Assembly (NCBI GenBank): GCA_030668825.1
Contig: DAOVET010000080.1
Coordinates: 1-12,343 of the forward strand
Length of the DNA stretch: 12,343 bases
From: Candidatus Heimdallarchaeota archaeon
Lineage (GTDB): Archaea > Asgardarchaeota > Heimdallarchaeia > Heimdallarchaeales > Heimdallarchaeaceae
Direction: 5' to 3'
This document shows positions 1 to 12,184 of the stretch, piece by piece. The notes beneath the pieces were generated by a model. That model was not told the origin of the DNA. It saw only the letters and a program-made list of their open reading frames with translations, and did no database searches. Position 1 is the stretch's first letter, and every line of letters begins with the position of its first letter. The position numbers and the translations under genes were made by a program.

Positions 1-405
1 CCAACAGGAATAGTAAAAGTACTAGTTGGAGAAAATTTAGTTGAGCCTTCAGCTGGTGAAAGAATTGATATTAAAGTTGAAATTAAGAGCGCAACATTTC
101 AAGTCTCAGCTAATGATACTGGAGGTAGTGGAGTATGGAAAATATCTTTAGAAACAGATGAAGGTAATTTAATAACTATTGAAGGAGATTCGGGTGAAAT
201 TACTTTACTATTCTTAGAATATGGAGAACATGACATCTTAATGACAGTTTATGATAGATCTGGTAACCTTTACATATTTACTTTCTCTGTAGACTTAATT
301 CCTGTCGAAACTCGTAGTGATTTTCCTTTACCATTCCCATTTGGTCTGACTACTTTAGCTGGTTTAATCGCTTTAGTTGCAATCTACTCAAAAAAGAAGA
401 AATAG
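1..405 (+). CDS. 3' end of an Ig-like/beta-sandwich cell-surface protein with a C-terminal membrane anchor (partial; absent from the ORF track)
   Basis: Frame +1 is open from base 1 to TAG at 403-405: PTGIVKVLVGENLVEPSAGERIDIKVEIKSATFQVSANDTGGSGVWKISLETDEGNLITIEGDSGEITLLFLEYGEHDILMTVYDRSGNLYIFTFSVDLIPVETRSDFPLPFPFGLTTLAGLIALVAIYSKKKK*. It has DxGGSGV and GEHxxxxxVYDxSGN motifs typical of bacterial/archaeal Ig-like repeats, then a Pro/Phe motif, a hydrophobic helix and KKKK. Confidence 0.85.
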   Translation, partial: PTGIVKVLVGENLVEPSAGERIDIKVEIKSATFQVSANDTGGSGVWKISLETDEGNLITIEGDSGEITLLFLEYGEHDILMTVYDRSGNLYIFTFSVDLIPVETRSDFPLPFPFGLTTLAGLIALVAIYSKKKK

Positions 406-1876: not shown

Positions 1877-4447
1877 TCATTGTTCCTTTAAGTAATAATC
1901 AGGAGATGTTACAAATCTATTCTCATCTTCTGCATCTCCTACTTCAAAGTCAGTGTAAATTTCTTCCATAATCTCCTTATCACTTATATCCGCCAGTATT
2001 TTACGCTTATCAACTGAAATAATTCTGCTTAATTCTATGGTTTTCGGATTGAATTTTTCCATCGTTTCTTTCATTTGGGTGAGATTTTCAATTTTACCTA
2101 TGAGATTCATAAAAGTTATTACAATATCAGGTCTGAGTGCAACTTGTGGAGCTATACTCAGTTGCTTGCCTATAGAAATAGCTAAGTTATCAATGAAATT
2201 CTGATCTTTTTCAAAGAGTGAAGCTGGATGATCACTGATGAAAGATGCAATTAATAGTAAATCAATTGATGTCCATAAATAAAGGAAGGGTTTTTCCATT
2301 AGTTGTAAATTATATACAATACCAATTTCTGTACCTTTTACATTTTCAACTACTTTACCTTCTAAATCAAAAATTTCATTTAACTCAAATGAAGGAGCAC
2401 CGTAACAAACCTGAATCATATTACTAATTAGTCTAACATTGCCCATTGAATATAACGAAAATTTAGAATTTTCTACTTTTTCAGGGAGAATTCCTGAGTT
2501 TTTCTCAATTAAAATCCTTTTCAACATTTCAATGTCATCTATTTCATCCTCAGTTCTGTCGTATTCTTGTGCAAAATCTTCTAGAATCTTTTTCTTTTTA
2601 TCTCTGAGGGATAACTTAGTTCGAGAAATGAGAGGCTGGTTGTAAACATCATAAAAGAAATCATAAATTATTCCAAAAAGATTAGAAGATACTTTTTTCT
2701 TCTCTACAACAAGGAAGTATCCTTTCATAGGATGATATATGACAGAATGAGCTTTACCAATTGCTTTTCCAAAAACATTTCTTGCAGAAATATCTTTATT
2801 TTCAGTAATATTATCATTAATCATGTTGCTTTCTGCTGGATTGAAATAAGGAAGTACATCACCATTTTGAATAATGTCTTGACTTTTTATTCTCATTTCT
2901 CTTGCCGTTTTCTCTATCTTCTCGATGGGAACAAATAGATAATTTTGAGGTTGAAGAATTACTTCAATTATTTCATCAGTTAATACTAAACCCTTAATCT
3001 TACAGTATTCTATAATTGCTTCTGGTATTAAATATGTAAAAGGCATTTGTGGTATATTTTTAGGTAGCTCATTTAACAAAAATTCTTTTTTCTCTCTTTC
3101 ATTTTCCAGTTCAGATTCTCCACTGATCGGTATTACGATATTATCATAAATCCTTCTGACCATAGAGAGCGATAACTCTTGTTGTTGCCTTAGAATTATA
3201 CCAAATTTCTCATTTAGTTGTCCAGGACCGACCACAAAACCAACTAAATCCTTTTGTTCATCAATAACAGGTTTGCCAGAATATCTCCAAAGCGCTTTAA
3301 GTTCTGATAACAGCTGATAATCTATTTCCCTACTTGATGCACTAGTTGCAACTGTTAATTGATTGCGAAATTGTAAGGCACTAATAATTTCACTATATTT
3401 TTGAATACGATTTTCTGTCTCAAGTGTTAGATCTTTGAAGTAAGGAGTTATTATTTCTTGATACTGTAGATGATCTCCATAAATTACATCCAAGGCATCC
3501 AAATCTTTAGCGTAATCGTTAATATCTTCATCTAATAGCTCTTCATAAATTTCGAGTTGTTTGATTTTTCTGGTTAATTCATAAGTTTGAGTTTCAGAAA
3601 TTTCATCTTTGTTGTTCTCCTTAAAAAGTTTAAAAGTTTCCTTTTCCTGTTGAATAATAACCTTCCATCTTAGAGTATCTTGAGCTGCTTTTCGGAGAAT
3701 AGGGCGATGTCTTAACACTCTTTCATTAATATCATAAATTATTCCCTTCAATTCTTTTTTATCGGTAACAAGACGTCTTAACCTATTGATGTTTTCACTC
3801 AATTCATTGTTAAAAAGGAGAAAATTGTTGTGAGTATTTTTGTATAAATGTTCTGTGCTAACAGAAAATAATAGCTCAGATAATTTGTAGAAGTGTTGAA
3901 AGATTTTATGTTGCTTGGCTTCAACTTCATTCTTTTTCCCCATATATTCCTGGTCATCAATTTTTCCAGACACATACTCTTGCTCTAAAGCCATTTCCTC
4001 TTCGAATGTCTTTGTGGCTGCTTTTATAGCCATATTCATAACATATCTTACTTTTAATTCTTCAATTTCAATGGGCGGAATTTCTTCAAGCTCAATAATG
4101 GGAATCCCGGTCGCTTTAGCGATTTCGTCTTCAGTTGGAACAAATACTTCTTCTATCTTAGTCTGAGGTTTACCAGTTTCAGTTTCAGCTGGTATTAATA
4201 TTTCCCCTCTATGAATTTGATGTATATCTTGTTCAACTTCAGGTAATTTTTGTTTAGTTTCTTCTAGTTCTTTCTTTTCCTCATCTGCAGTAATAGTTTT
4301 TGGAAGATTTGCTAGAAGTTCCTTATATTTGTTTTTTAAAGTTTGATAGGTTCTTCTATCAATTGAACCACGGATGTAACGTAAATCTAAATCTCTAATA
4401 AATCGGAGAATACGTCTTCTCTTAACGTTTACTTCATCGTCTAACAT
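1877..4447 (-). CDS. 856-aa protein: N-terminal CdvA/SHOCT-like helical repeats and coiled coil, three insert-containing PRC-barrel-like repeats, acidic tail
   Basis: Long ORF. Three segments begin with the PRC-like G-K-x-V-x-D/N-x-x-G-x-x-h-G-x-V pattern (aa ~389, ~549, ~695) and end with a PRC-like h-P/x-h-x-x-I-x-x-h...h-x-h strand pair. Two LxxxY[IV]xGxIDxxxYxxxKN motifs lie at aa 20-41 and 154-175. The CDS is near certain; the domain call is by eye. Confidence 0.7.
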   Translation of the reverse strand: MLDDEVNVKRRRILRFIRDLDLRYIRGSIDRRTYQTLKNKYKELLANLPKTITADEEKKELEETKQKLPEVEQDIHQIHRGEILIPAETETGKPQTKIEEVFVPTEDEIAKATGIPIIELEEIPPIEIEELKVRYVMNMAIKAATKTFEEEMALEQEYVSGKIDDQEYMGKKNEVEAKQHKIFQHFYKLSELLFSVSTEHLYKNTHNNFLLFNNELSENINRLRRLVTDKKELKGIIYDINERVLRHRPILRKAAQDTLRWKVIIQQEKETFKLFKENNKDEISETQTYELTRKIKQLEIYEELLDEDINDYAKDLDALDVIYGDHLQYQEIITPYFKDLTLETENRIQKYSEIISALQFRNQLTVATSASSREIDYQLLSELKALWRYSGKPVIDEQKDLVGFVVGPGQLNEKFGIILRQQQELSLSMVRRIYDNIVIPISGESELENEREKKEFLLNELPKNIPQMPFTYLIPEAIIEYCKIKGLVLTDEIIEVILQPQNYLFVPIEKIEKTAREMRIKSQDIIQNGDVLPYFNPAESNMINDNITENKDISARNVFGKAIGKAHSVIYHPMKGYFLVVEKKKVSSNLFGIIYDFFYDVYNQPLISRTKLSLRDKKKKILEDFAQEYDRTEDEIDDIEMLKRILIEKNSGILPEKVENSKFSLYSMGNVRLISNMIQVCYGAPSFELNEIFDLEGKVVENVKGTEIGIVYNLQLMEKPFLYLWTSIDLLLIASFISDHPASLFEKDQNFIDNLAISIGKQLSIAPQVALRPDIVITFMNLIGKIENLTQMKETMEKFNPKTIELSRIISVDKRKILADISDKEIMEEIYTDFEVGDAEDENRFVTSPDYYLKEQ

Positions 4448-4600: not shown

Positions 4601-4960
4601 ATGAGTTTTCAAGACGATGTTGCAGTAGCTGCTCAAGAAGGAACCATTGGAGTGGTTTGGTTAATTGGGGATGATTTGAAATGTTATTATCAATATGGTG
4701 ACTGGGCTGTTGACCCTACAATACCTTTCGATTCATGGAAGAATCAAAAACCAAGTATTGATTTTGGTGGAGATTTAAAATTTACAGTGATCACAATGAC
4801 TCCTGAGAGATTGATCTCAACCAATATGGGAGGTCAAGGACATTTAATTGTTGCCCGTTGTCCAAAATGGGCTGGTTGTGTAATTTCTTGGTGTCCAGCA
4901 ACTATTCAGAAAGACATAGCTTATGCTACTACAGCAAGACTTGCAGCCAAAGTAGCCTAA
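4601..4960 (+). CDS. Asgard-type profilin (actin-monomer-binding protein)
   Basis: 119 aa. SIDFGGDLKFTVITMTPERLISTNMGGQGHLIVARCP matches the Asgard profilin core as I recall it from Loki profilins (S-h-x-h-x-G-h-K-Y/F-x-h-h-x-x-T-x-E-R-x-I-x-T-N-h-x-G-x-G-H-h-h-h). It also has the hGxD...QxxxW N-terminal half, a C-terminal helix and an upstream GGTGA SD. Confidence 0.85.
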   Translation: MSFQDDVAVAAQEGTIGVVWLIGDDLKCYYQYGDWAVDPTIPFDSWKNQKPSIDFGGDLKFTVITMTPERLISTNMGGQGHLIVARCPKWAGCVISWCPATIQKDIAYATTARLAAKVA

Positions 4961-4982: not shown

Positions 4983-5285
4983 TTGATTTCACATCCATCT
5001 GTTGAAATTAGGAATGATAAAATTTTTTTGTCAATTAGAGTTCATCCCAAATCTTCAGTAAATAGGATTGATGTTTCTGACTTTTCTATAGATGTCTATG
5101 TTAAAGAGCCAGCAGATAAAGGTAAAGCAAATAGATCAGTATTGAGTTGTTTAGCTAAAACTTTCAAAATTCCCTCCTCTTTTCTTTCTATTTCTCGAGG
5201 GTTAAAGTCTAGAAATAAAATAATTGTAATAAAGGATCAAAATAGTGATTTACTTTTGAAGAAAATAATTGGAAAGCATATTTAG
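4983..5285 (+). CDS. DUF167 / UPF0235 (YggU-like) protein
   Basis: LSIRVHPKSS, VYVKEPADKGKAN and ISRGLKSRNKIIVI match the family consensus (VxPxS, PPxxGKAN, GxxSRxK). TTG start 22 nt after the profilin stop, so probably co-transcribed. Confidence 0.9.
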   Translation: MISHPSVEIRNDKIFLSIRVHPKSSVNRIDVSDFSIDVYVKEPADKGKANRSVLSCLAKTFKIPSSFLSISRGLKSRNKIIVIKDQNSDLLLKKIIGKHI

Positions 5286-5848
5286 AGTTTCATCTTTTCA
5301 AATGCTCGGAGTAACTCATTTCTTTCATTAAACCGATTTTGTACGCTGCTACTCAGAGTCATAAGAGCAGTGATATTACCTTCCACTGCATCTAACATCA
5401 TCTCTTCTAGTTTGACTTTTACATCTGCTATTTTGTCTTTAAATTCTTCAGCGTTATCCAAAATATCTATTTCTAGCAAGTAGAGGATAGACAAATCAAT
5501 TCCATGTTCACCTTCAACTTCTTTTGCATCAAAAAATGTGCTATACTTATAATCTGTACTTGCTGTTTCTTTTCTCATATCTGAAACGATTTTCATGACT
5601 ATTCCTGCTGGCCCCCAGCTTGTTAATAGTTGTGAATGGATTAAAAGTTCATGCACTTGACTCATCATATCTCCGGTTTCCCTCATTAGTGTAAGTAATT
5701 TTGTTCTGAAAGCTACATCAGAATCTCTTCTTAGTTCTAATTCTTTGTATCCGTGATAGTTTTCAATATTCGCACTAAGAATTTTTAGAGCCTCACTGGG
5801 TTTCTTTGAAATTTCTTCTTCAGACAAATTCTTTTTCCTACCGAACAT
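5282..5848 (-). CDS. Conserved all-helical hypothetical protein
   Basis: 188-aa ORF co-oriented 22 nt after the ligase stop. Contains YHGYKELELRRDSD, DYKYSTFFD and LYLLEIDI, which resemble an uncharacterised family I recall with consensus PGFxGYxxxExRRxxD...YGYxGFFD...LYxxD. Confidence 0.75.
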   Translation of the reverse strand: MFGRKKNLSEEEISKKPSEALKILSANIENYHGYKELELRRDSDVAFRTKLLTLMRETGDMMSQVHELLIHSQLLTSWGPAGIVMKIVSDMRKETASTDYKYSTFFDAKEVEGEHGIDLSILYLLEIDILDNAEEFKDKIADVKVKLEEMMLDAVEGNITALMTLSSSVQNRFNERNELLRAFEKMKL

Positions 5849-5870: not shown

Positions 5871-7649
5871 TTATTGCTTTAAATATATTGTGCGTATTTC
5901 ATCATTTGTAGTGGCTTGTTCTGGAGCTTTGTCATGTACAGTCCTACCTGTAAATCTAGGAAATCTTAACGCCAAACCATCCATGTCGTTTTCTAATAAA
6001 CCTCTTGAGCAGGTGTGCATTTGACTTCTGGTTATTTCATCTCCTATTACCTCAATAACTATCTTAGGGTCAAACCAGATACTGCTTTCAATGTCGCTTT
6101 GATATTCTTTAGGTTTCTCTCTTTCAAGAGGTTTGAGTTCTTGAAAGAAAACTGCAAGATCTTCATCAGAGAATCCTGTTCCAATTCTAGTAAAGGTTTG
6201 ATAAACGCCCTCAATCTGATCATAACATCCTAATAGGAAGGTTCCATATTTTCCTGCACGTTTTCCTTTTCCATATTCTGCTCCAAGTATCACTAAATCA
6301 AAAGAATCAGATAATTTTGCATCGTATCCTGCCTTATATTTTACCCAATTCCAACCCCGTGCTCCAGCTTGATACACCGAATCTTTTCCAATACTTTTCC
6401 CCATAATTCCTTCACAACTATCTTGGAGTGCTTGATGGAAAAAATTATCTATTTCATCAGAGTTGTCAGCAACTGTTTGATGGGAAAACTTGACGTTATT
6501 AGTTTCTCTAACTATTTTCTGTAGATTATCTCTCCTTTCGAGATAACTAAAGTCTAATCTGGAAGTATTATTACTGTAAAGAACATCAAAAAGAAAAACT
6601 CTAACAGGAATTTCTTGAATCTTTTGATCTATATCATGTTTTCTTTTTCTCTGGGAAACATACTGAAAAGGCAAAATTGCTTCTTTTTCGTGATCGTATG
6701 CAACTATTTCTCCTTCTATAATAAACTCATTTTCTAGAGCAGCATTGTTAATGAAATCAATAACATCAGGAAATTGCTTTGTTATATCTTCAGTACTTCT
6801 TGAAAACAATTTCACTTTATTCTCTTTTTTGTGAATTTGAACTCTTAAGCCATCATATTTATACTCTAGAGCGCATTTTCTATTGAACCTTTCAAGTAAT
6901 TCTTCTGAGCTTGATACTCTTTGTGCAAGCATTACTTTAATAGGACTGAATACCTTTACTTCAATTTCCTTGACAGCCTCAAGACCATCTTTATACAGAA
7001 CTGATGAAATATAATCTATATCTGAACATCTGTTGTAAGCTCTTTCCAAAAATTGCTTATTTTCTCTCGATCCAGTTTTCGCCTTTGAAAGCGCTTCAAG
7101 CAATAATTGTACTGCAACACCTGTTCTCAAATTTCCTGCAACCAATCTAGAGATGTATCTTGCTTCCAGAGATGTAACTTTAGATAATAAACCAGATAGG
7201 ATTCTTATTTTCTTATCTGCTGATCCTTCACCAGAAGTTTGAGAAATTGTATCCAGAATTTTCCAGACATCCACAACATCATATTGTTCAGTCTCTTGTT
7301 GATTTGTGAAAGCTAAATTTGTGAAAGCTAATAGTGTCGATTGTGATTTATTATCTAGAAGTTTATGTGCTGTTTTGCCTAAATCTCCTATTTCTTCTAA
7401 GAAGCTTAGAATATTCTTCTCACTCTTACCAGTTGCTAAAGCTAGAGCTTTGATTGCCATTTTTTCTGCAAGCATTAATTCGATTCCAACAAAATCTGGA
7501 TAAAGCTTACCTAAAGTTAAAAGCGAAATTTTACCTATTTCGCTCCCATCTGATTTGGATAAAGTATTAGCTAAGATATCAACCATTTCTAGTTTCTTTT
7601 GTGTATTCTCCAATCTAAAATAACACTCGCATAAATCTTTAAACCTCAC
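5871..7649 (-). CDS. lig: ATP-dependent DNA ligase (archaeal, LigI-type)
   Basis: Motif I EYKYDGLR (KxDG), III IIEGEIV, IIIa FLFDVLY, IV EGIMGK, V WVKYK, VI LRFPRF. N-terminal DNA-binding domain with GDLG; 592 aa; GTG start. Confidence 0.97.
   Translation of the reverse strand: MRFKDLCECYFRLENTQKKLEMVDILANTLSKSDGSEIGKISLLTLGKLYPDFVGIELMLAEKMAIKALALATGKSEKNILSFLEEIGDLGKTAHKLLDNKSQSTLLAFTNLAFTNQQETEQYDVVDVWKILDTISQTSGEGSADKKIRILSGLLSKVTSLEARYISRLVAGNLRTGVAVQLLLEALSKAKTGSRENKQFLERAYNRCSDIDYISSVLYKDGLEAVKEIEVKVFSPIKVMLAQRVSSSEELLERFNRKCALEYKYDGLRVQIHKKENKVKLFSRSTEDITKQFPDVIDFINNAALENEFIIEGEIVAYDHEKEAILPFQYVSQRKRKHDIDQKIQEIPVRVFLFDVLYSNNTSRLDFSYLERRDNLQKIVRETNNVKFSHQTVADNSDEIDNFFHQALQDSCEGIMGKSIGKDSVYQAGARGWNWVKYKAGYDAKLSDSFDLVILGAEYGKGKRAGKYGTFLLGCYDQIEGVYQTFTRIGTGFSDEDLAVFFQELKPLEREKPKEYQSDIESSIWFDPKIVIEVIGDEITRSQMHTCSRGLLENDMDGLALRFPRFTGRTVHDKAPEQATTNDEIRTIYLKQ
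7302..7331. repeat. Perfect 15-bp in-frame tandem duplication inside lig
   Basis: ATTTGTGAAAGCTAA at 7302-7316 and 7317-7331, encoding LAFTN-LAFTN on the minus strand. Confidence 0.95.
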
Positions 7650-7665
7650 CTTTATCAGACCTAGG

Positions 7666-9078
7666 TTATCTTTTCTTGCCTTTTTGCTCTTTCATTTCCA
7701 GAACAATTTCACTAATCAGATGAATAAGATTTGCACTTAAAACATCAAGACTATTTTTAAGTTCTCGAACAGCTTGAGTAAGATCATCAATTTTTTGCAT
7801 TTGTTCTGCAGGTTGAACCTTCTGCACTTCTGTATCTACTTGTAACTCCTGATCAAAAATCATGATATCTTTCTCAAATTTATCCATTTCAGGAGTTCTA
7901 GGTTCTGGTATCGAAGTAATGTCACCTCTAATTGCAGATTTAGCAGCTTTTTTGCGTTTTTCCTTCTTGCTTTTATCGCGTTCTTCTTTTTCACGAATTC
8001 TTTCCAAATAAGGCAGGATTTGTGCGTAATCAATTCCTTTTCTGCGAGCCATATCTGTCAGCAGAATGTCGCGATATCCAGGATCTTCGATTTTCAATTC
8101 ATCTATATCTTTCTCTAATTCCTGAATTATTGCAATTGATTCGTAAACATTTTTGTGAGGTGCTTTTATCTCTGGTTCTCTTTCAACAGTTTTTGTAGCT
8201 CTGATTTCTTCTTTTAATGACTTCATGGCTTTTATAACTTCAGCCTTGACAGTATCGGTTTCTCCTTTAGAGAGAGCTTTCTTAACCATATCAATTTTAC
8301 TCACAGATTCAAAGGGTTCTTCCCTTGCTTTTTCTTTAACATCAATTTTTTGTACGGTTTCTGCTATATCTTCTTCTGCTTCTTCTGCAAGTTCTTCATC
8401 TTGTTTTGTAAATGCTGGCGGAACTGATACATATGTGAATAGGTTTTTAGCAAGTTTAGAATTATCTCTTAATTTAATCCCTGATTTGGAATCAGATAAC
8501 AATAGGTATGAACCACATACAAAAACTGTTCCCAAACCATAAGACGATATACACATAACAGCAGAGCTTGGTGGATCGCTTGTTTTTTTTGTCCTAGCTA
8601 GTTCTTCTACTCCTTCTTTGAGATGCAGGGAGCAACTGGAAACCATTGTTATTTCGCTAAGACCTTCAGTAATTGGATGCTTATAGAATTTTGAAACAAT
8701 TATATTGCTTTCTAATTCTAAATCAAAGTTTTGGTAATCAAAGATTTGATTAGCTACAATTTCCACATTAAAGTGTTTGAGTAGTGTGTTCAGATTAGTA
8801 TTTAATCCTTTATCTCCTCCTGCATTTGTGAAAACTGCTAGTGCTCCTCCCTCATCAACAAATCTTAGCAATGCTTTAACTTCGTGACCCATAATCTTTG
8901 AACCATCGGGACACAAGAAAACAAAGATGTCAAATTTGGAAATGTTTGAATATTTTATCGGATATGAATCATGCTTACTTATTTCATGTCCTTCCTCTTC
9001 TAGTATGTTTGCTAGTTTCTGAAAATTCTCAAAAATTTTTCCTCTCTCTTTTTGAGTTTCATCGAAAAGTATTTTCAT
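7666..9078 (-). CDS. GIFT-domain (IFT52/GldG-like, class I glutamine amidotransferase-like fold) protein with charged helical and coiled-coil C-terminal half
   Basis: aa ~1-218: ILFDETQKE, FVDEGGALAVFTNAGGDKGLNTNLNTLLKHFNV, HPITEG, GTVFVCGSYLLLSD...DNSKLAKNLFTYV. No signal peptide or TM segment. GGTGA SD at 9083-9087 (minus strand). Confidence 0.75.
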   Translation of the reverse strand: MKILFDETQKERGKIFENFQKLANILEEEGHEISKHDSYPIKYSNISKFDIFVFLCPDGSKIMGHEVKALLRFVDEGGALAVFTNAGGDKGLNTNLNTLLKHFNVEIVANQIFDYQNFDLELESNIIVSKFYKHPITEGLSEITMVSSCSLHLKEGVEELARTKKTSDPPSSAVMCISSYGLGTVFVCGSYLLLSDSKSGIKLRDNSKLAKNLFTYVSVPPAFTKQDEELAEEAEEDIAETVQKIDVKEKAREEPFESVSKIDMVKKALSKGETDTVKAEVIKAMKSLKEEIRATKTVEREPEIKAPHKNVYESIAIIQELEKDIDELKIEDPGYRDILLTDMARRKGIDYAQILPYLERIREKEERDKSKKEKRKKAAKSAIRGDITSIPEPRTPEMDKFEKDIMIFDQELQVDTEVQKVQPAEQMQKIDDLTQAVRELKNSLDVLSANLIHLISEIVLEMKEQKGKKR

Positions 9079-10209: not shown

Positions 10210-11193
10210 ATGAGCCTAATCAAGAAATTTCAATGTCCTCATTGCAATGCTCCAATGGATGTTAATCCTGAGGACGCAATTTTCAACTGTGTATCTTGTG
10301 GACAAGCAGTTCTCGCGGATGGTTCTAAATTTGATAATCATTACATCCTAAGGAATACGCTCAACCAGAAAAAGATACACGATATTGTGAAGGAGTTTAT
10401 TAGGAAAAAAGGGTTCATGAGGGGAATTAAAGGTTATAAGATTACAAACATTACCCCAACATTGATACCTTTTTGGGTTGTAACTTCTGATGCGTATACC
10501 CATTTTGTAGGATACCTCAAATACACAGAAACAAGAACTAGAACAGTAGGTACTGGAAAAAATAGACGAACAGTAACTGAAAGCGTTACAGTCTACCGAC
10601 CAATCGACAGAGAAATAAGAGAAAAGCGTGCAGATGTTTTACTTGGGAGGAGAGGAAGTTCAATTTATGGATATGATAAAGTAAAAAATATCGTGAGAGC
10701 AGAGTTTCCAAATGCAGTTCAATTTAACTATGATCAATTACTGGCTGATGAAAAAGAATTCAACTATCTTTCATCAGAAATAGACTTAGATGCAGCAAAT
10801 CAGCTAGGTAAAACTATTGTTTTCGATAATCATAGAGCTCAAGCTGAGAGAGCATGCACTAAAGTTTTCGATTGCGCTACACAATTAACTTACTCTGGTA
10901 CTTATTTCTTACATGCTCCAGTTTGGCAGATAGAATATGAGTTCAAGGGAGAAACCTACAGAATAGCTATTTTAGGTAGTTCTGGAAAAATAATAATAGG
11001 CGAAATTCCCGTTACAACAATTTTCAGAATTATTTTTCTCTCGCTAACAGTACTAATTCTAGGAGGAGCTGGAGTTTTGAGTTACTTCTTCCAAACTGCA
11101 GTTTATGTGCCGATAATAGCGGGAATTGTTGCAGCAGCAGTAGGATTCTTCACGCTTAAGAATACCTTCAAACCTAAATCGGTGGTGGACTAA
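10210..11193 (+). CDS. Zn-ribbon protein with two C-terminal TM helices (YdjG-like), paralog 1
   Basis: CPHC...CVSC at the N-terminus, IPFW, HAPVWQIEYEFKGETYRIAILGSSGKIIIGEIP, then two hydrophobic helices and a basic tail. Confidence 0.75.
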   Translation: MSLIKKFQCPHCNAPMDVNPEDAIFNCVSCGQAVLADGSKFDNHYILRNTLNQKKIHDIVKEFIRKKGFMRGIKGYKITNITPTLIPFWVVTSDAYTHFVGYLKYTETRTRTVGTGKNRRTVTESVTVYRPIDREIREKRADVLLGRRGSSIYGYDKVKNIVRAEFPNAVQFNYDQLLADEKEFNYLSSEIDLDAANQLGKTIVFDNHRAQAERACTKVFDCATQLTYSGTYFLHAPVWQIEYEFKGETYRIAILGSSGKIIIGEIPVTTIFRIIFLSLTVLILGGAGVLSYFFQTAVYVPIIAGIVAAAVGFFTLKNTFKPKSVVD

Positions 11194-11194
11194 A

Positions 11195-12184
11195 ATGAAT
11201 GTAAGATCAATAATGTGCCCAAATTGTGCTGCACCTTTAGAATTAGAAGCTACACAATCACATGTTACATGTCCATATTGTTCTGTAACAAGTGAACTGA
11301 AGAAAGTAACTGATCTGATTGAACATTATATGTTACCAGTTGTTTATGATGTTGAGCAAATTAGAACTGAACTTGTAGGTGACATACTTAAATATCCAGG
11401 TACTCCTGAAGATTTGCATAAATCATTAAAAATTACTAAATTAGACCTTAAATTCTACCCCTATTTCATTGTAACTGTTCACCTCCGAACAGAATACAAA
11501 GGAAATGGTGAATATGCTACATTTAGCAGTCGGTACAAATCCGGATATAGACGTATCAGTACTCATCTGAAACCTGAACAAGGGGTATTTGATGATACTA
11601 GAGAGTTCATAATATATGCAGCTGAAGAAGCACAAAATGATTTAATCAACTTTGAAATATCCACCAGAGGTAAAAGGTACTTCCAAGCACTCGAGGCAGA
11701 GAAAGTTAAAGCTGATGTAGTTCCTAGTATTTTCGATTTAGATCAAGCTAAGAATGAAGCTACACACTCAATGAGAGAGATCCATAAAGGATTGATGCTC
11801 AAAGAATTAGCTCAAATTCTTGAAGTTAGAGATCAGCCAGAAATAAAAGGTGTTTATTTGTTGCACATTCCATTCTATTTCATTGAATTTGAAGCAGCTG
11901 GAAAGAAACACAATGCTACATTAGATGGGGCAACTGGTAGGACTGTCCTAACCGATGTCCCCCGAGAAACATCCTATTGGATACAAGTTGGAGTTCTAAC
12001 TACTATTTTCGCAGCTGTAGGATTAGCTGGTATTTATCTAGCGGTTCAGAGTGCCTATACTGCTTATTTTGGAATTTTCGGTGCAATTGCCGGTCTCATT
12101 CTTGCTGGTAGAACGTTACAACTTGGACTTAAATCTAGACATAGAGAAACACAAAGGTCAAAGAAAAGGAGATTCAAGAGATAG
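11195..12184 (+). CDS. Zn-ribbon protein with two C-terminal TM helices (YdjG-like), paralog 2
   Basis: CPNC...CPYC, PEDL, FYPYF, HIPFYFIEFEAAGKKHNATLDGATGRTVLTDVP, two TM helices and a very basic tail (RSKKRRFKR). Starts 1 nt after the paralog 1 stop (TAAaATG). Confidence 0.75.
   Translation: MNVRSIMCPNCAAPLELEATQSHVTCPYCSVTSELKKVTDLIEHYMLPVVYDVEQIRTELVGDILKYPGTPEDLHKSLKITKLDLKFYPYFIVTVHLRTEYKGNGEYATFSSRYKSGYRRISTHLKPEQGVFDDTREFIIYAAEEAQNDLINFEISTRGKRYFQALEAEKVKADVVPSIFDLDQAKNEATHSMREIHKGLMLKELAQILEVRDQPEIKGVYLLHIPFYFIEFEAAGKKHNATLDGATGRTVLTDVPRETSYWIQVGVLTTIFAAVGLAGIYLAVQSAYTAYFGIFGAIAGLILAGRTLQLGLKSRHRETQRSKKRRFKR

Follow-up and report, generated by a model that had tools for sequence, protein, structure and literature searches.

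A soluble-looking GIFT-domain protein with a lineage-specific helical tail, encoded beside a DNA ligase gene in a Heimdall-type Asgard archaeon

The DNA examined here is a stretch of 12,343 nucleotides (nt) from Candidatus Heimdallarchaeota archaeon (assembly GCA_030668825.1, contig DAOVET010000080.1), which we refer to as the window. Our subject is a gene on its minus strand, the GIFT gene, whose product (the GIFT protein) joins an N-terminal GIFT domain, or head, of the type found in the intraflagellar transport (IFT) protein IFT52 to a helical tail of its own. Scoring of 7997 candidates against the protein yielded a cluster of 100% identity plus 78 more homologues at E <=0.001. Homologues of the same length score from E 1e-272 to 1e-72, and the open reading frame (ORF) is therefore a real gene. 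Homologues of 418-474 amino acids (aa) align over the entire length of the protein, and the organism names attached to them are all Heimdallarchaeota, Heimdallarchaeaceae or the generic 'Asgard group'. Loci 93-95% identical to the gene are titled 'Candidatus Heimdallarchaeota archaeon', and its DNA is also present in metagenomes from cold seep and marine sediment. The gene and the parts of its product are listed below; confidence in predicted models is given as the predicted local distance difference test (pLDDT), and A1 and A3 are alignments described in the text.

7666..9078, minus strand: GIFT gene, 470 aa plus stop (7666-7668), from the ATG-to-stop ORF, its translation and its homologues
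8419..9078, minus strand: GIFT domain, aa 1-220, alpha/beta with a GATase1-like fold, from Pfam, hhalign, VIA, Foldseek and A1
aa 3-13, 55-61 and 77-97: head motifs ILFDETQKERG, LCPDGSK and GG..NAGGDKGLNTNLN
aa 147-150, 167-170 and 189-191: head motifs SSCS, SDPP and GSY
aa 73-100, 183-196 and 205-217: head segments FVDEGG...NTLL, GTVFVCGSYLLLSD and DNSKLAKNLFTYV
8164..8418, minus strand: acidic, poorly conserved, low-confidence linker, aa 221-305, with pLDDT <50 at 223-274 and 293-308
aa 227-237: DEELAEEAEED, inside the acidic linker
7981..8163, minus strand: conserved three-helix module, aa 306-366, from the A1 invariants and a tail model with pLDDT 87-92
aa 332-351: DPGYRDILLTDMARRKGIDY, the motif of the three-helix module
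7939..7974, minus strand: basic patch KSKKEKRKKAAK, aa 369-380, read from the sequence
7852..7914, minus strand: short conserved linear motif SIPEPRTPEMDKFEKDIMIFD, aa 389-409, from the A3 consensus
7675..7809, minus strand: terminal amphipathic helix, aa 424-468, pLDDT 80-94, followed by the basic end KGKKR
aa 430-451: IDDLTQ...SANL, a segment of the terminal helix

An alignment of 29 full-length relatives of the GIFT protein (A1) has 57 invariant columns, of which 50 fall within aa 1-206 and the other seven within aa 332-351. In the AlphaFold2 model of the whole protein (mean pLDDT 72.1), residues 1-220 form a confidently predicted alpha/beta domain; helices cover 308-327, 333-346, 351-382 and 424-468, and confidence is low in the linkers 223-274, 293-308, 381-398 and 412-422. 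To judge from its sequence the protein looks soluble: simple hydropathy finds neither a signal peptide nor a transmembrane (TM) helix, charged residues stand at the N-terminus, and the top 19-residue Kyte-Doolittle mean, 1.53, falls within a beta-strand region of the head. An earlier sequence-only reading of this DNA had also described a protein with no signal peptide or TM segment, and the hydropathy check bears this out. The segments quoted in that reading were all located in the GIFT protein; it gave no strand, and the gene lies on the minus strand.

The head belongs to the GIFT domains, its homologue in IFT52 being the N-terminal domain (IFT52N). The Pfam family PF23355 (IFT52_GIFT) matches it with 40.1 bits, above the cut-off of 27.2, the alignment being limited to aa 3-109 of the protein and to profile positions 2-105 of 246. 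Comparison of A1 with an alignment of 18 eukaryotic IFT52 proteins (A5) by hhalign paired columns 4-222 with 21-270 (214 columns, probability 98.9%, E 2.4e-17, 26% identity). A profile of 17 heads (A2), searched against the PDB, retrieved three IFT52 chains at E 6.3e-18, 2.8e-17 and 6.4e-14; the hits after these, at E 7e-4, are unrelated. The VIA fold search placed mouse IFT52N first (5fms_A, Z 24.9, root mean square deviation (rmsd) 2.6, 215 residues aligned) and human OST48 second (6s7o_G, Z 21.0, rmsd 2.8, 213 residues aligned), and Foldseek returned IFT52N as its top match (5fmr/5fms, E 1e-14, more exactly 1.1e-14, TMt 0.77-0.83), with OST48/Wbp1 at 2e-9. The sequence-only reading had called a GIFT domain and had named a Foldseek search of the head as a check. 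Its call holds, since IFT52 is the best Pfam family, the best PDB sequence match and the best solved fold; the IFT52 strings that it cited are close to the mouse IFT52 chain, though not letter for letter.

Matches to other families of related fold are weaker. ABC_transp_aux (PF09822) reaches 26.5 bits on the GIFT protein, under its cut-off of 34.7, and ThuA (PF06283) 24.7 bits, under 33.4. No GATase family of Pfam matches the protein, and NCBIfam has no family for it. Further down the VIA list for the head are ThuA-like proteins (structures at Z 14-16.4), GATase1-like proteins and glycosidase B-domains, overall at Z 12-18. Polar residues invariant across A1 are numerous in the head, comprising T8, Q9, E11, R12, C56, D58, S60, K61, E66, D89, N95, N97, Q111, D114, E123 and C149.

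IFT52 itself (OSM-6/BLD1, of the IFT-B1 core; 5FMR, 5FMS and 8BD7 chain B) is likewise a soluble protein with the homologous alpha/beta domain at its N terminus and a disordered linker after it, and the IFT52 head and the Asgard head have in common the motifs ILFD..[QK]KE, GG...GG[DE]...TN.N.LL, GCS, GSY..FSD and [DE]N.KL...F.W. The head of the GIFT protein lacks insertions of ~30-40 residues present in that of IFT52 (220 versus about 250-270 residues). Beyond the linker the two proteins differ: in IFT52 a central domain (PF23352) binds IFT88 and IFT70 and a C-terminal domain (PF21178) pairs with IFT46, whereas the GIFT protein has neither domain and carries its own helical tail instead. Unlike the setting of IFT52, the Asgard host has no cilium. 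OST48/WBP1 (DDOST), a subunit of oligosaccharyltransferase, has the GIFT fold in common with the GIFT protein, but it is lumenal and membrane-anchored, and the GIFT protein has no match to PF03345 at E <=0.01; the search of A2 against the PDB gave no OST48 chain at E <=1. GldG and the PF09822 proteins contain a distantly related GIFT-type domain, as the 26.5-bit match reflects, but proteins of the GldG type are exported or membrane-bound, and the examples gathered here carry DUF7088.

A disordered acidic linker (23 D/E versus 17 K/R), which varies in length and sequence across A1, connects the head to the helical tail. The three-helix module that follows contains the seven invariant columns of the tail (D332, I338, T341, A344, G348, D350 and Y351), and its motif was found in 52 long-form proteins and nowhere else among all the proteins gathered in the analysis. 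No Pfam or PDB match was found for the module. In the basic patch the basic character is retained across A1 while the sequence varies. From an alignment of 17 tails (A3), the linear motif has the consensus SIPxPxTPExDxFEKDLxxFD, at low to middling pLDDT, and the terminal helix the consensus ELKNSVDVLSANLIHLxSEIVLE; this helix, in its best heptad register, has hydrophobic residues at 9 of its 13 a/d positions.

Searches with the tail returned no relative. The A3 tails match no Pfam family at cut-off, PF23352 and PF21178 included, and the best hit of the tail profile in the PDB is DotF at E 0.024, in a coiled region. A separate model of the tail (region aa 296-470, pLDDT 74.8) gave no Foldseek matches at E <=0.001 and, with VIA, generic long-helix or coiled-coil matches only (Z <=5.7), a search in which model residues 1-96, which contain the three-helix module, were barely tested. 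The predicted complex of two copies of aa 296-470 (score 0.03, mark 0.42) is evidence neither for nor against self-association. Alignment of the tail with full-length IFT52 by hhalign had a probability of 0.07%, and the IFT52 central (PF23352) and C-terminal (Itf52_C, PF21178) domains are over cut-off in none of 301 Asgard genomes. The sequence-only reading had proposed that the protein keeps the IFT52 layout of GIFT domain, linker and C-terminal interaction domain. This part of it was not upheld: the tail resembles neither the central nor the C-terminal domain of IFT52, and the shared layout is thus only an analogy.

The head family extends well beyond the window's lineage. Searched with a profile, 1.84 billion cluster representatives gave 2852 clusters at E <=0.001, 672 at 1e-10 and 82 at 1e-30. 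When the top representatives were scanned, PF23355 was the GIFT-type family in 60 of 61, and the IFT52 central or C-terminal domain was found in none of the 61. Organism names were available for 10 of 30 clusters looked up; eight are Asgard (Njord-, Hel-, Loki-, Kari- and Prometh-archaeal labels), one is Thermoprotei and one Ignavibacteriota. In the window's GTDB phylum the head family is present at E <=1e-10 in 248 of 301 genomes (84 of the 90 high-quality ones), and in the window's own GTDB family in 27 of 28 genomes, mostly as a single copy. One family elsewhere in the phylum has four to five copies in all of its 68 genomes. Within the window's class the distribution of soluble GIFT proteins is patchy, with one family having them in 1 of 21 genomes and other families of the same order in 0 of 3 and 5 of 11. 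The Atlas also holds look-alike clusters with PF23355 in bacteria and Thermoplasmatota, so a PF23355 match is not special to Asgard archaea.

Other soluble GIFT proteins of Asgard archaea have the same head, with 35-42% identity to forms of 330-350 aa. The nearest Asgard clade likewise has a C-terminal amphipathic helix, while the three-helix module with its DPGYRDILLT sequence and the length of 440-474 aa are confined to the Heimdall-type long form. As a whole the helical tail is found only in the Heimdall-type lineage; other Asgard GIFT clades end in other hairpins, and once in a Ras-like GTPase. The latter is P0135, a metagenome protein of 468 aa with a GIFT head (PF23355, 69.8 bits) and a C-terminal Ras/Arf-type GTPase (PF00071, 113.8 bits), the fusion being represented by one cluster with one member. 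It is of note that IFT-B contains Rab-like GTPases.

Automatic labels on relatives vary, from the UniRef label 'IFT52 GI...' for P0048 to 'Gldg family protein' or 'hypothetical' at NCBI. Our literature search found nothing linking IFT52 or GIFT domains to Asgard archaea, although supplementary tables of Asgard comparative papers may list the family; the main text of PMC10936438 does not contain 'GIFT', 'IFT52' or 'GldG'. What is new here is the undescribed tail of the GIFT protein and its undescribed link to a DNA ligase. That link, and the other neighbours of the gene, are seen in the following features of the window.

5871..7649, minus strand: ATP-dependent DNA ligase with Pfam ligase N, M and C domains, 16 nt downstream of the GIFT gene
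5282..5848, minus strand: p188, a 188-aa helical protein, 22 nt downstream of the ligase
4601-4960, plus strand: Asgard profilin, 119 aa, from PDB phmmer
1877-4447, minus strand: 856-aa protein with no Pfam/NCBIfam family, 43-94% identity in the block across Heimdall-type genomes
1-405, plus strand: C-terminal end of a larger surface-type protein, entering from the left edge, from the ORF translation
10210-11193 and 11195-12184, plus strand: two adjacent paralogues that both combine a CxxC...CxxC zinc ribbon at the N-terminus with membrane helices at the C-terminus

The genome, 90.6% complete, has no PF01068 match other than the ligase. Among 29 long-form loci examined, the ligase lies next to the GIFT gene in 26 of the 27 that could be assessed, and p188 follows in all 25 assessable loci; in locus L029 the ligase is absent and p188 comes directly after the GIFT gene. 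Outside the family, 18 regions were inspected at the best head match, and four of them keep the order of head gene and then ligase on one strand. These belong to families f6 (two regions), f9 and f22, with ligases 37-44% identical, and p188 is present in two of the four, in f6 and in f9. The order of GIFT gene and ligase is thereby kept across four GTDB families, the window's own and these three, whose forms are likewise encoded upstream of the ligase. The GIFT gene, ligase and p188 are probably co-transcribed. A contig of sequencing run X20, the single run presumed to be RNA, which has five short contigs, spans the GIFT/ligase junction (7625-7786), but the run is flagged as probably DNA and is uninformative on transcription, and none of the sequencing runs listed as carrying this DNA is recorded as RNA. 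For p188 no named family was found in Pfam, NCBIfam, PDB sequence and profile searches or the Atlas; its invariant residues are Y31, Y34, R40, W78, the run T104-F105-F106 and R176.

Several other observations concern the remainder of the block. A ParA/MinD-like ATPase and the two zinc-ribbon paralogues lie divergently upstream of the GIFT gene. The paralogues, for which Pfam and NCBIfam have no family, are neighbours of the GIFT gene in every long-form locus that extends far enough, and in L029 they share its strand. The profilin ORF has no match in Pfam or NCBIfam, and was recognised by phmmer against the PDB (5zza_P, E 5.9e-11; 7pbh_A 'Profilin', E 5.6e-6; 5yed_A, E 9.5e-4); the gene shares the block with the GIFT gene in the majority of loci, and does so in f9 and f22 as well. 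The product of 1-405 has a hydrophobic segment and then KKKK at its end, an arrangement resembling a C-terminal membrane anchor, and a piece 39% identical to this product occurs near the GIFT gene in L029.

On balance, we lean towards reading the GIFT protein as an adaptor that is soluble and non-enzymatic, belongs to a family spread across the Asgard archaea, and is composed of an IFT52N-type head and a lineage-specific tail. Passages of PMC4818760 describe IFT52N as having no catalytic residues, apparently no sugar binding and a conserved surface patch for protein contact, and passages of PMC9753473 describe it as cradled by the tetratricopeptide repeats (TPRs) of IFT88 and the IFT57/38 coiled coil. 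Following these descriptions, the head would be a rigid docking platform for partner proteins, as in IFT52, and the tail may tether the head to another partner or oligomerise it. The ligase and p188 would be the first candidate partners because of the probable co-transcription.

Some observations weigh against the adaptor reading. The partners of the GIFT protein are candidates only. Gene order is preserved across the entire 12-kb block in members of the family, where the adjacency of GIFT gene and ligase is therefore not specific, and outside the family the link to the ligase is absent from 14 of the 18 regions. A cytoplasmic location has hydropathy as its sole evidence, and the polar residues that are invariant in the head could also belong to a ligand-binding or catalytic site.

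The conserved order of genes raises the prospect of an accessory factor of replication or repair, in which the tail (a helix-turn-helix (HTH)-like module plus the basic patch) or the head would bind the ligase, p188 or DNA, and the genes would form a functional operon. Tight spacing on one strand, the status of the ligase as the only one in the genome, and the persistence of the GIFT-ligase-p188 order in four GTDB families despite low ligase identity are all consistent with such a role, as is a small three-helix module followed by a basic patch. Nevertheless, the GIFT protein has no homology to any replication factor, L029 retains the GIFT gene and p188 without the ligase, and the link is missing in 9 of the 12 Asgard families sampled outside f1. 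Housekeeping genes, moreover, often share operons without joint function. We consider a replication or repair role unlikely on this evidence.

The fold of the head leads to another alternative, that of an enzyme or small-ligand-binding protein of the GATase1/ThuA-like type. The ThuA-like, GATase1-like and glycosidase B-domain structures at Z 12-18, the 24.7-bit ThuA match and the presence of Cys, Asp, Ser, Lys and Glu at invariant positions are in keeping with such a protein. The ThuA match is under its cut-off, however, no GATase family of Pfam is matched, and C56 is not conserved in IFT52 in the hhalign alignment. The nearest relative, IFT52N, has no catalytic residues and apparently does not bind sugar, according to passages of PMC4818760, and we regard an enzymatic or ligand-binding function as improbable.

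A third alternative concerns descent: the Heimdall lineage would be a direct and specially close relative of the IFT52 ancestor, keeping its layout of head, linker and interaction tail. IFT52 is indeed the best Pfam, PDB-sequence and fold match of the head. A profile of diverse Asgard family members (A4) retrieves the ciliate IFT52 P0255 with 152 bits (E 8.1e-39, or 8e-39 when rounded), while GldG-type proteins reach at most 59 bits; Pfam confirms P0255 as IFT52 (GIFT 286, central 106.6 and C-terminal 76.8 bits). A search with P0255 yielded at least 120 eukaryotic IFT52 proteins, on which A2 scores 19.5-91.3 bits (median 62.4), compared with at least 99 bits on the top 150 prokaryotic representatives and at most 34 bits on GldG-type proteins.

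Trees of the head domain were rooted on GldG-type rows for drawing and were built without 48 fragments or partial domains, near-duplicates above ~60% identity and the longest branches; soluble bacterial forms are barely sampled in them. FastTree (133 rows) made IFT52 the sister of the 104 prokaryotic rows taken together (support 81), a position that was lost under a site-heterogeneous model and was rejected. A quick IQ-TREE search under LG+C20+F+G4 (89 rows) put IFT52 beside a Njord-type trio with support 81, and a careful search (51 rows) ended in a trichotomy made up of the Njord-type trio, the remaining 35 rows (83/83) and IFT52, whose stem is 1.86. In the careful tree the GldG-type rows are separated by a 100/99 branch, and the window protein is nested in a six-row Asgard clade (99/97), apart from IFT52. 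In the approximately unbiased (AU) test, IFT52 forced together with that clade gave a delta lnL of 12.14 and p 0.201, and this placement is not rejected. The eukaryotic IFT52 profile scores 49.3 bits on the window protein, the lowest of 27 'core' rows (median 75.3); the median for the long-form family is 55.0 (55 when rounded), with 61.9 for an Ignavibacteriota giant and a median of 23.1 for GldG-type proteins.

We conclude that the IFT52 head is to be placed in the soluble group rich in Asgard proteins, away from GldG-type domains, and that the window lineage has no demonstrable special closeness to IFT52. The maximum-likelihood (ML) phylogeny that the sequence-only reading had called for upholds the separation from GldG-type domains by the 100/99 branch; it does not demonstrate special closeness (AU p 0.201), and nor does the profile score of 49.3 bits. 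A grouping with generic GldG, which that reading had named among the outcomes that would speak against it, was likewise not seen: the 100/99 branch lies between, and PF09822 is below cut-off. Its suggestion of a protein close to the IFT52 ancestor is not supported for this lineage, which is nested in the 99/97 Asgard clade while IFT52 sits elsewhere, in a trichotomy. A direct and specially close relationship is very improbable. The ML trees put IFT52 with the Njord-type trio (81) or in a basal trichotomy, the Pfam alignment covers aa 3-109 only, and the tail is unlike the IFT52 central and C-terminal domains, which are over cut-off in none of the 301 genomes. We do not regard the GIFT protein as an IFT52 orthologue. 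The sister group of IFT52 cannot be named, because soluble bacterial forms are too thinly sampled.

The last alternative, a GldG-like auxiliary subunit of an ABC-2 transporter, would fit the weak PF09822 match of 26.5 bits and the name 'Gldg family protein' that NCBI gives to some relatives, but it can be dismissed given the 34.7 cut-off, the lack of a TM segment and of DUF7088, the absence by Pfam of any ABC transporter gene among the 12 window ORFs, and the position of GldG-type domains beyond the 100/99 branch with at most 34 bits on the family profile.

The adaptor reading leaves the whole soluble GIFT family, and not the window lineage in particular, as the candidate relative of the stock of the IFT52 head. 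In the literature searched we found no explanation for the origin of the non-coatomer parts of IFT (IFT52 and IFT46), and a soluble GIFT family present in most of the Asgard genomes searched is a concrete prokaryotic candidate source of that head. It is possible, if somewhat doubtful, that eukaryotes inherited the IFT52 head from this Asgard-wide family. If so, the core scaffold of IFT would be partly Asgard-derived, with its tail later replaced, and the Heimdall-type members tied to DNA ligase and p188 would show the role of the head before cilia. The window gene is among the least IFT52-like members of the family, and the tail that it encodes arose within its own lineage. The most informative trait of the gene is its conserved place upstream of the genome's sole replicative-type DNA ligase, and this points to a role that has nothing to do with cilia.

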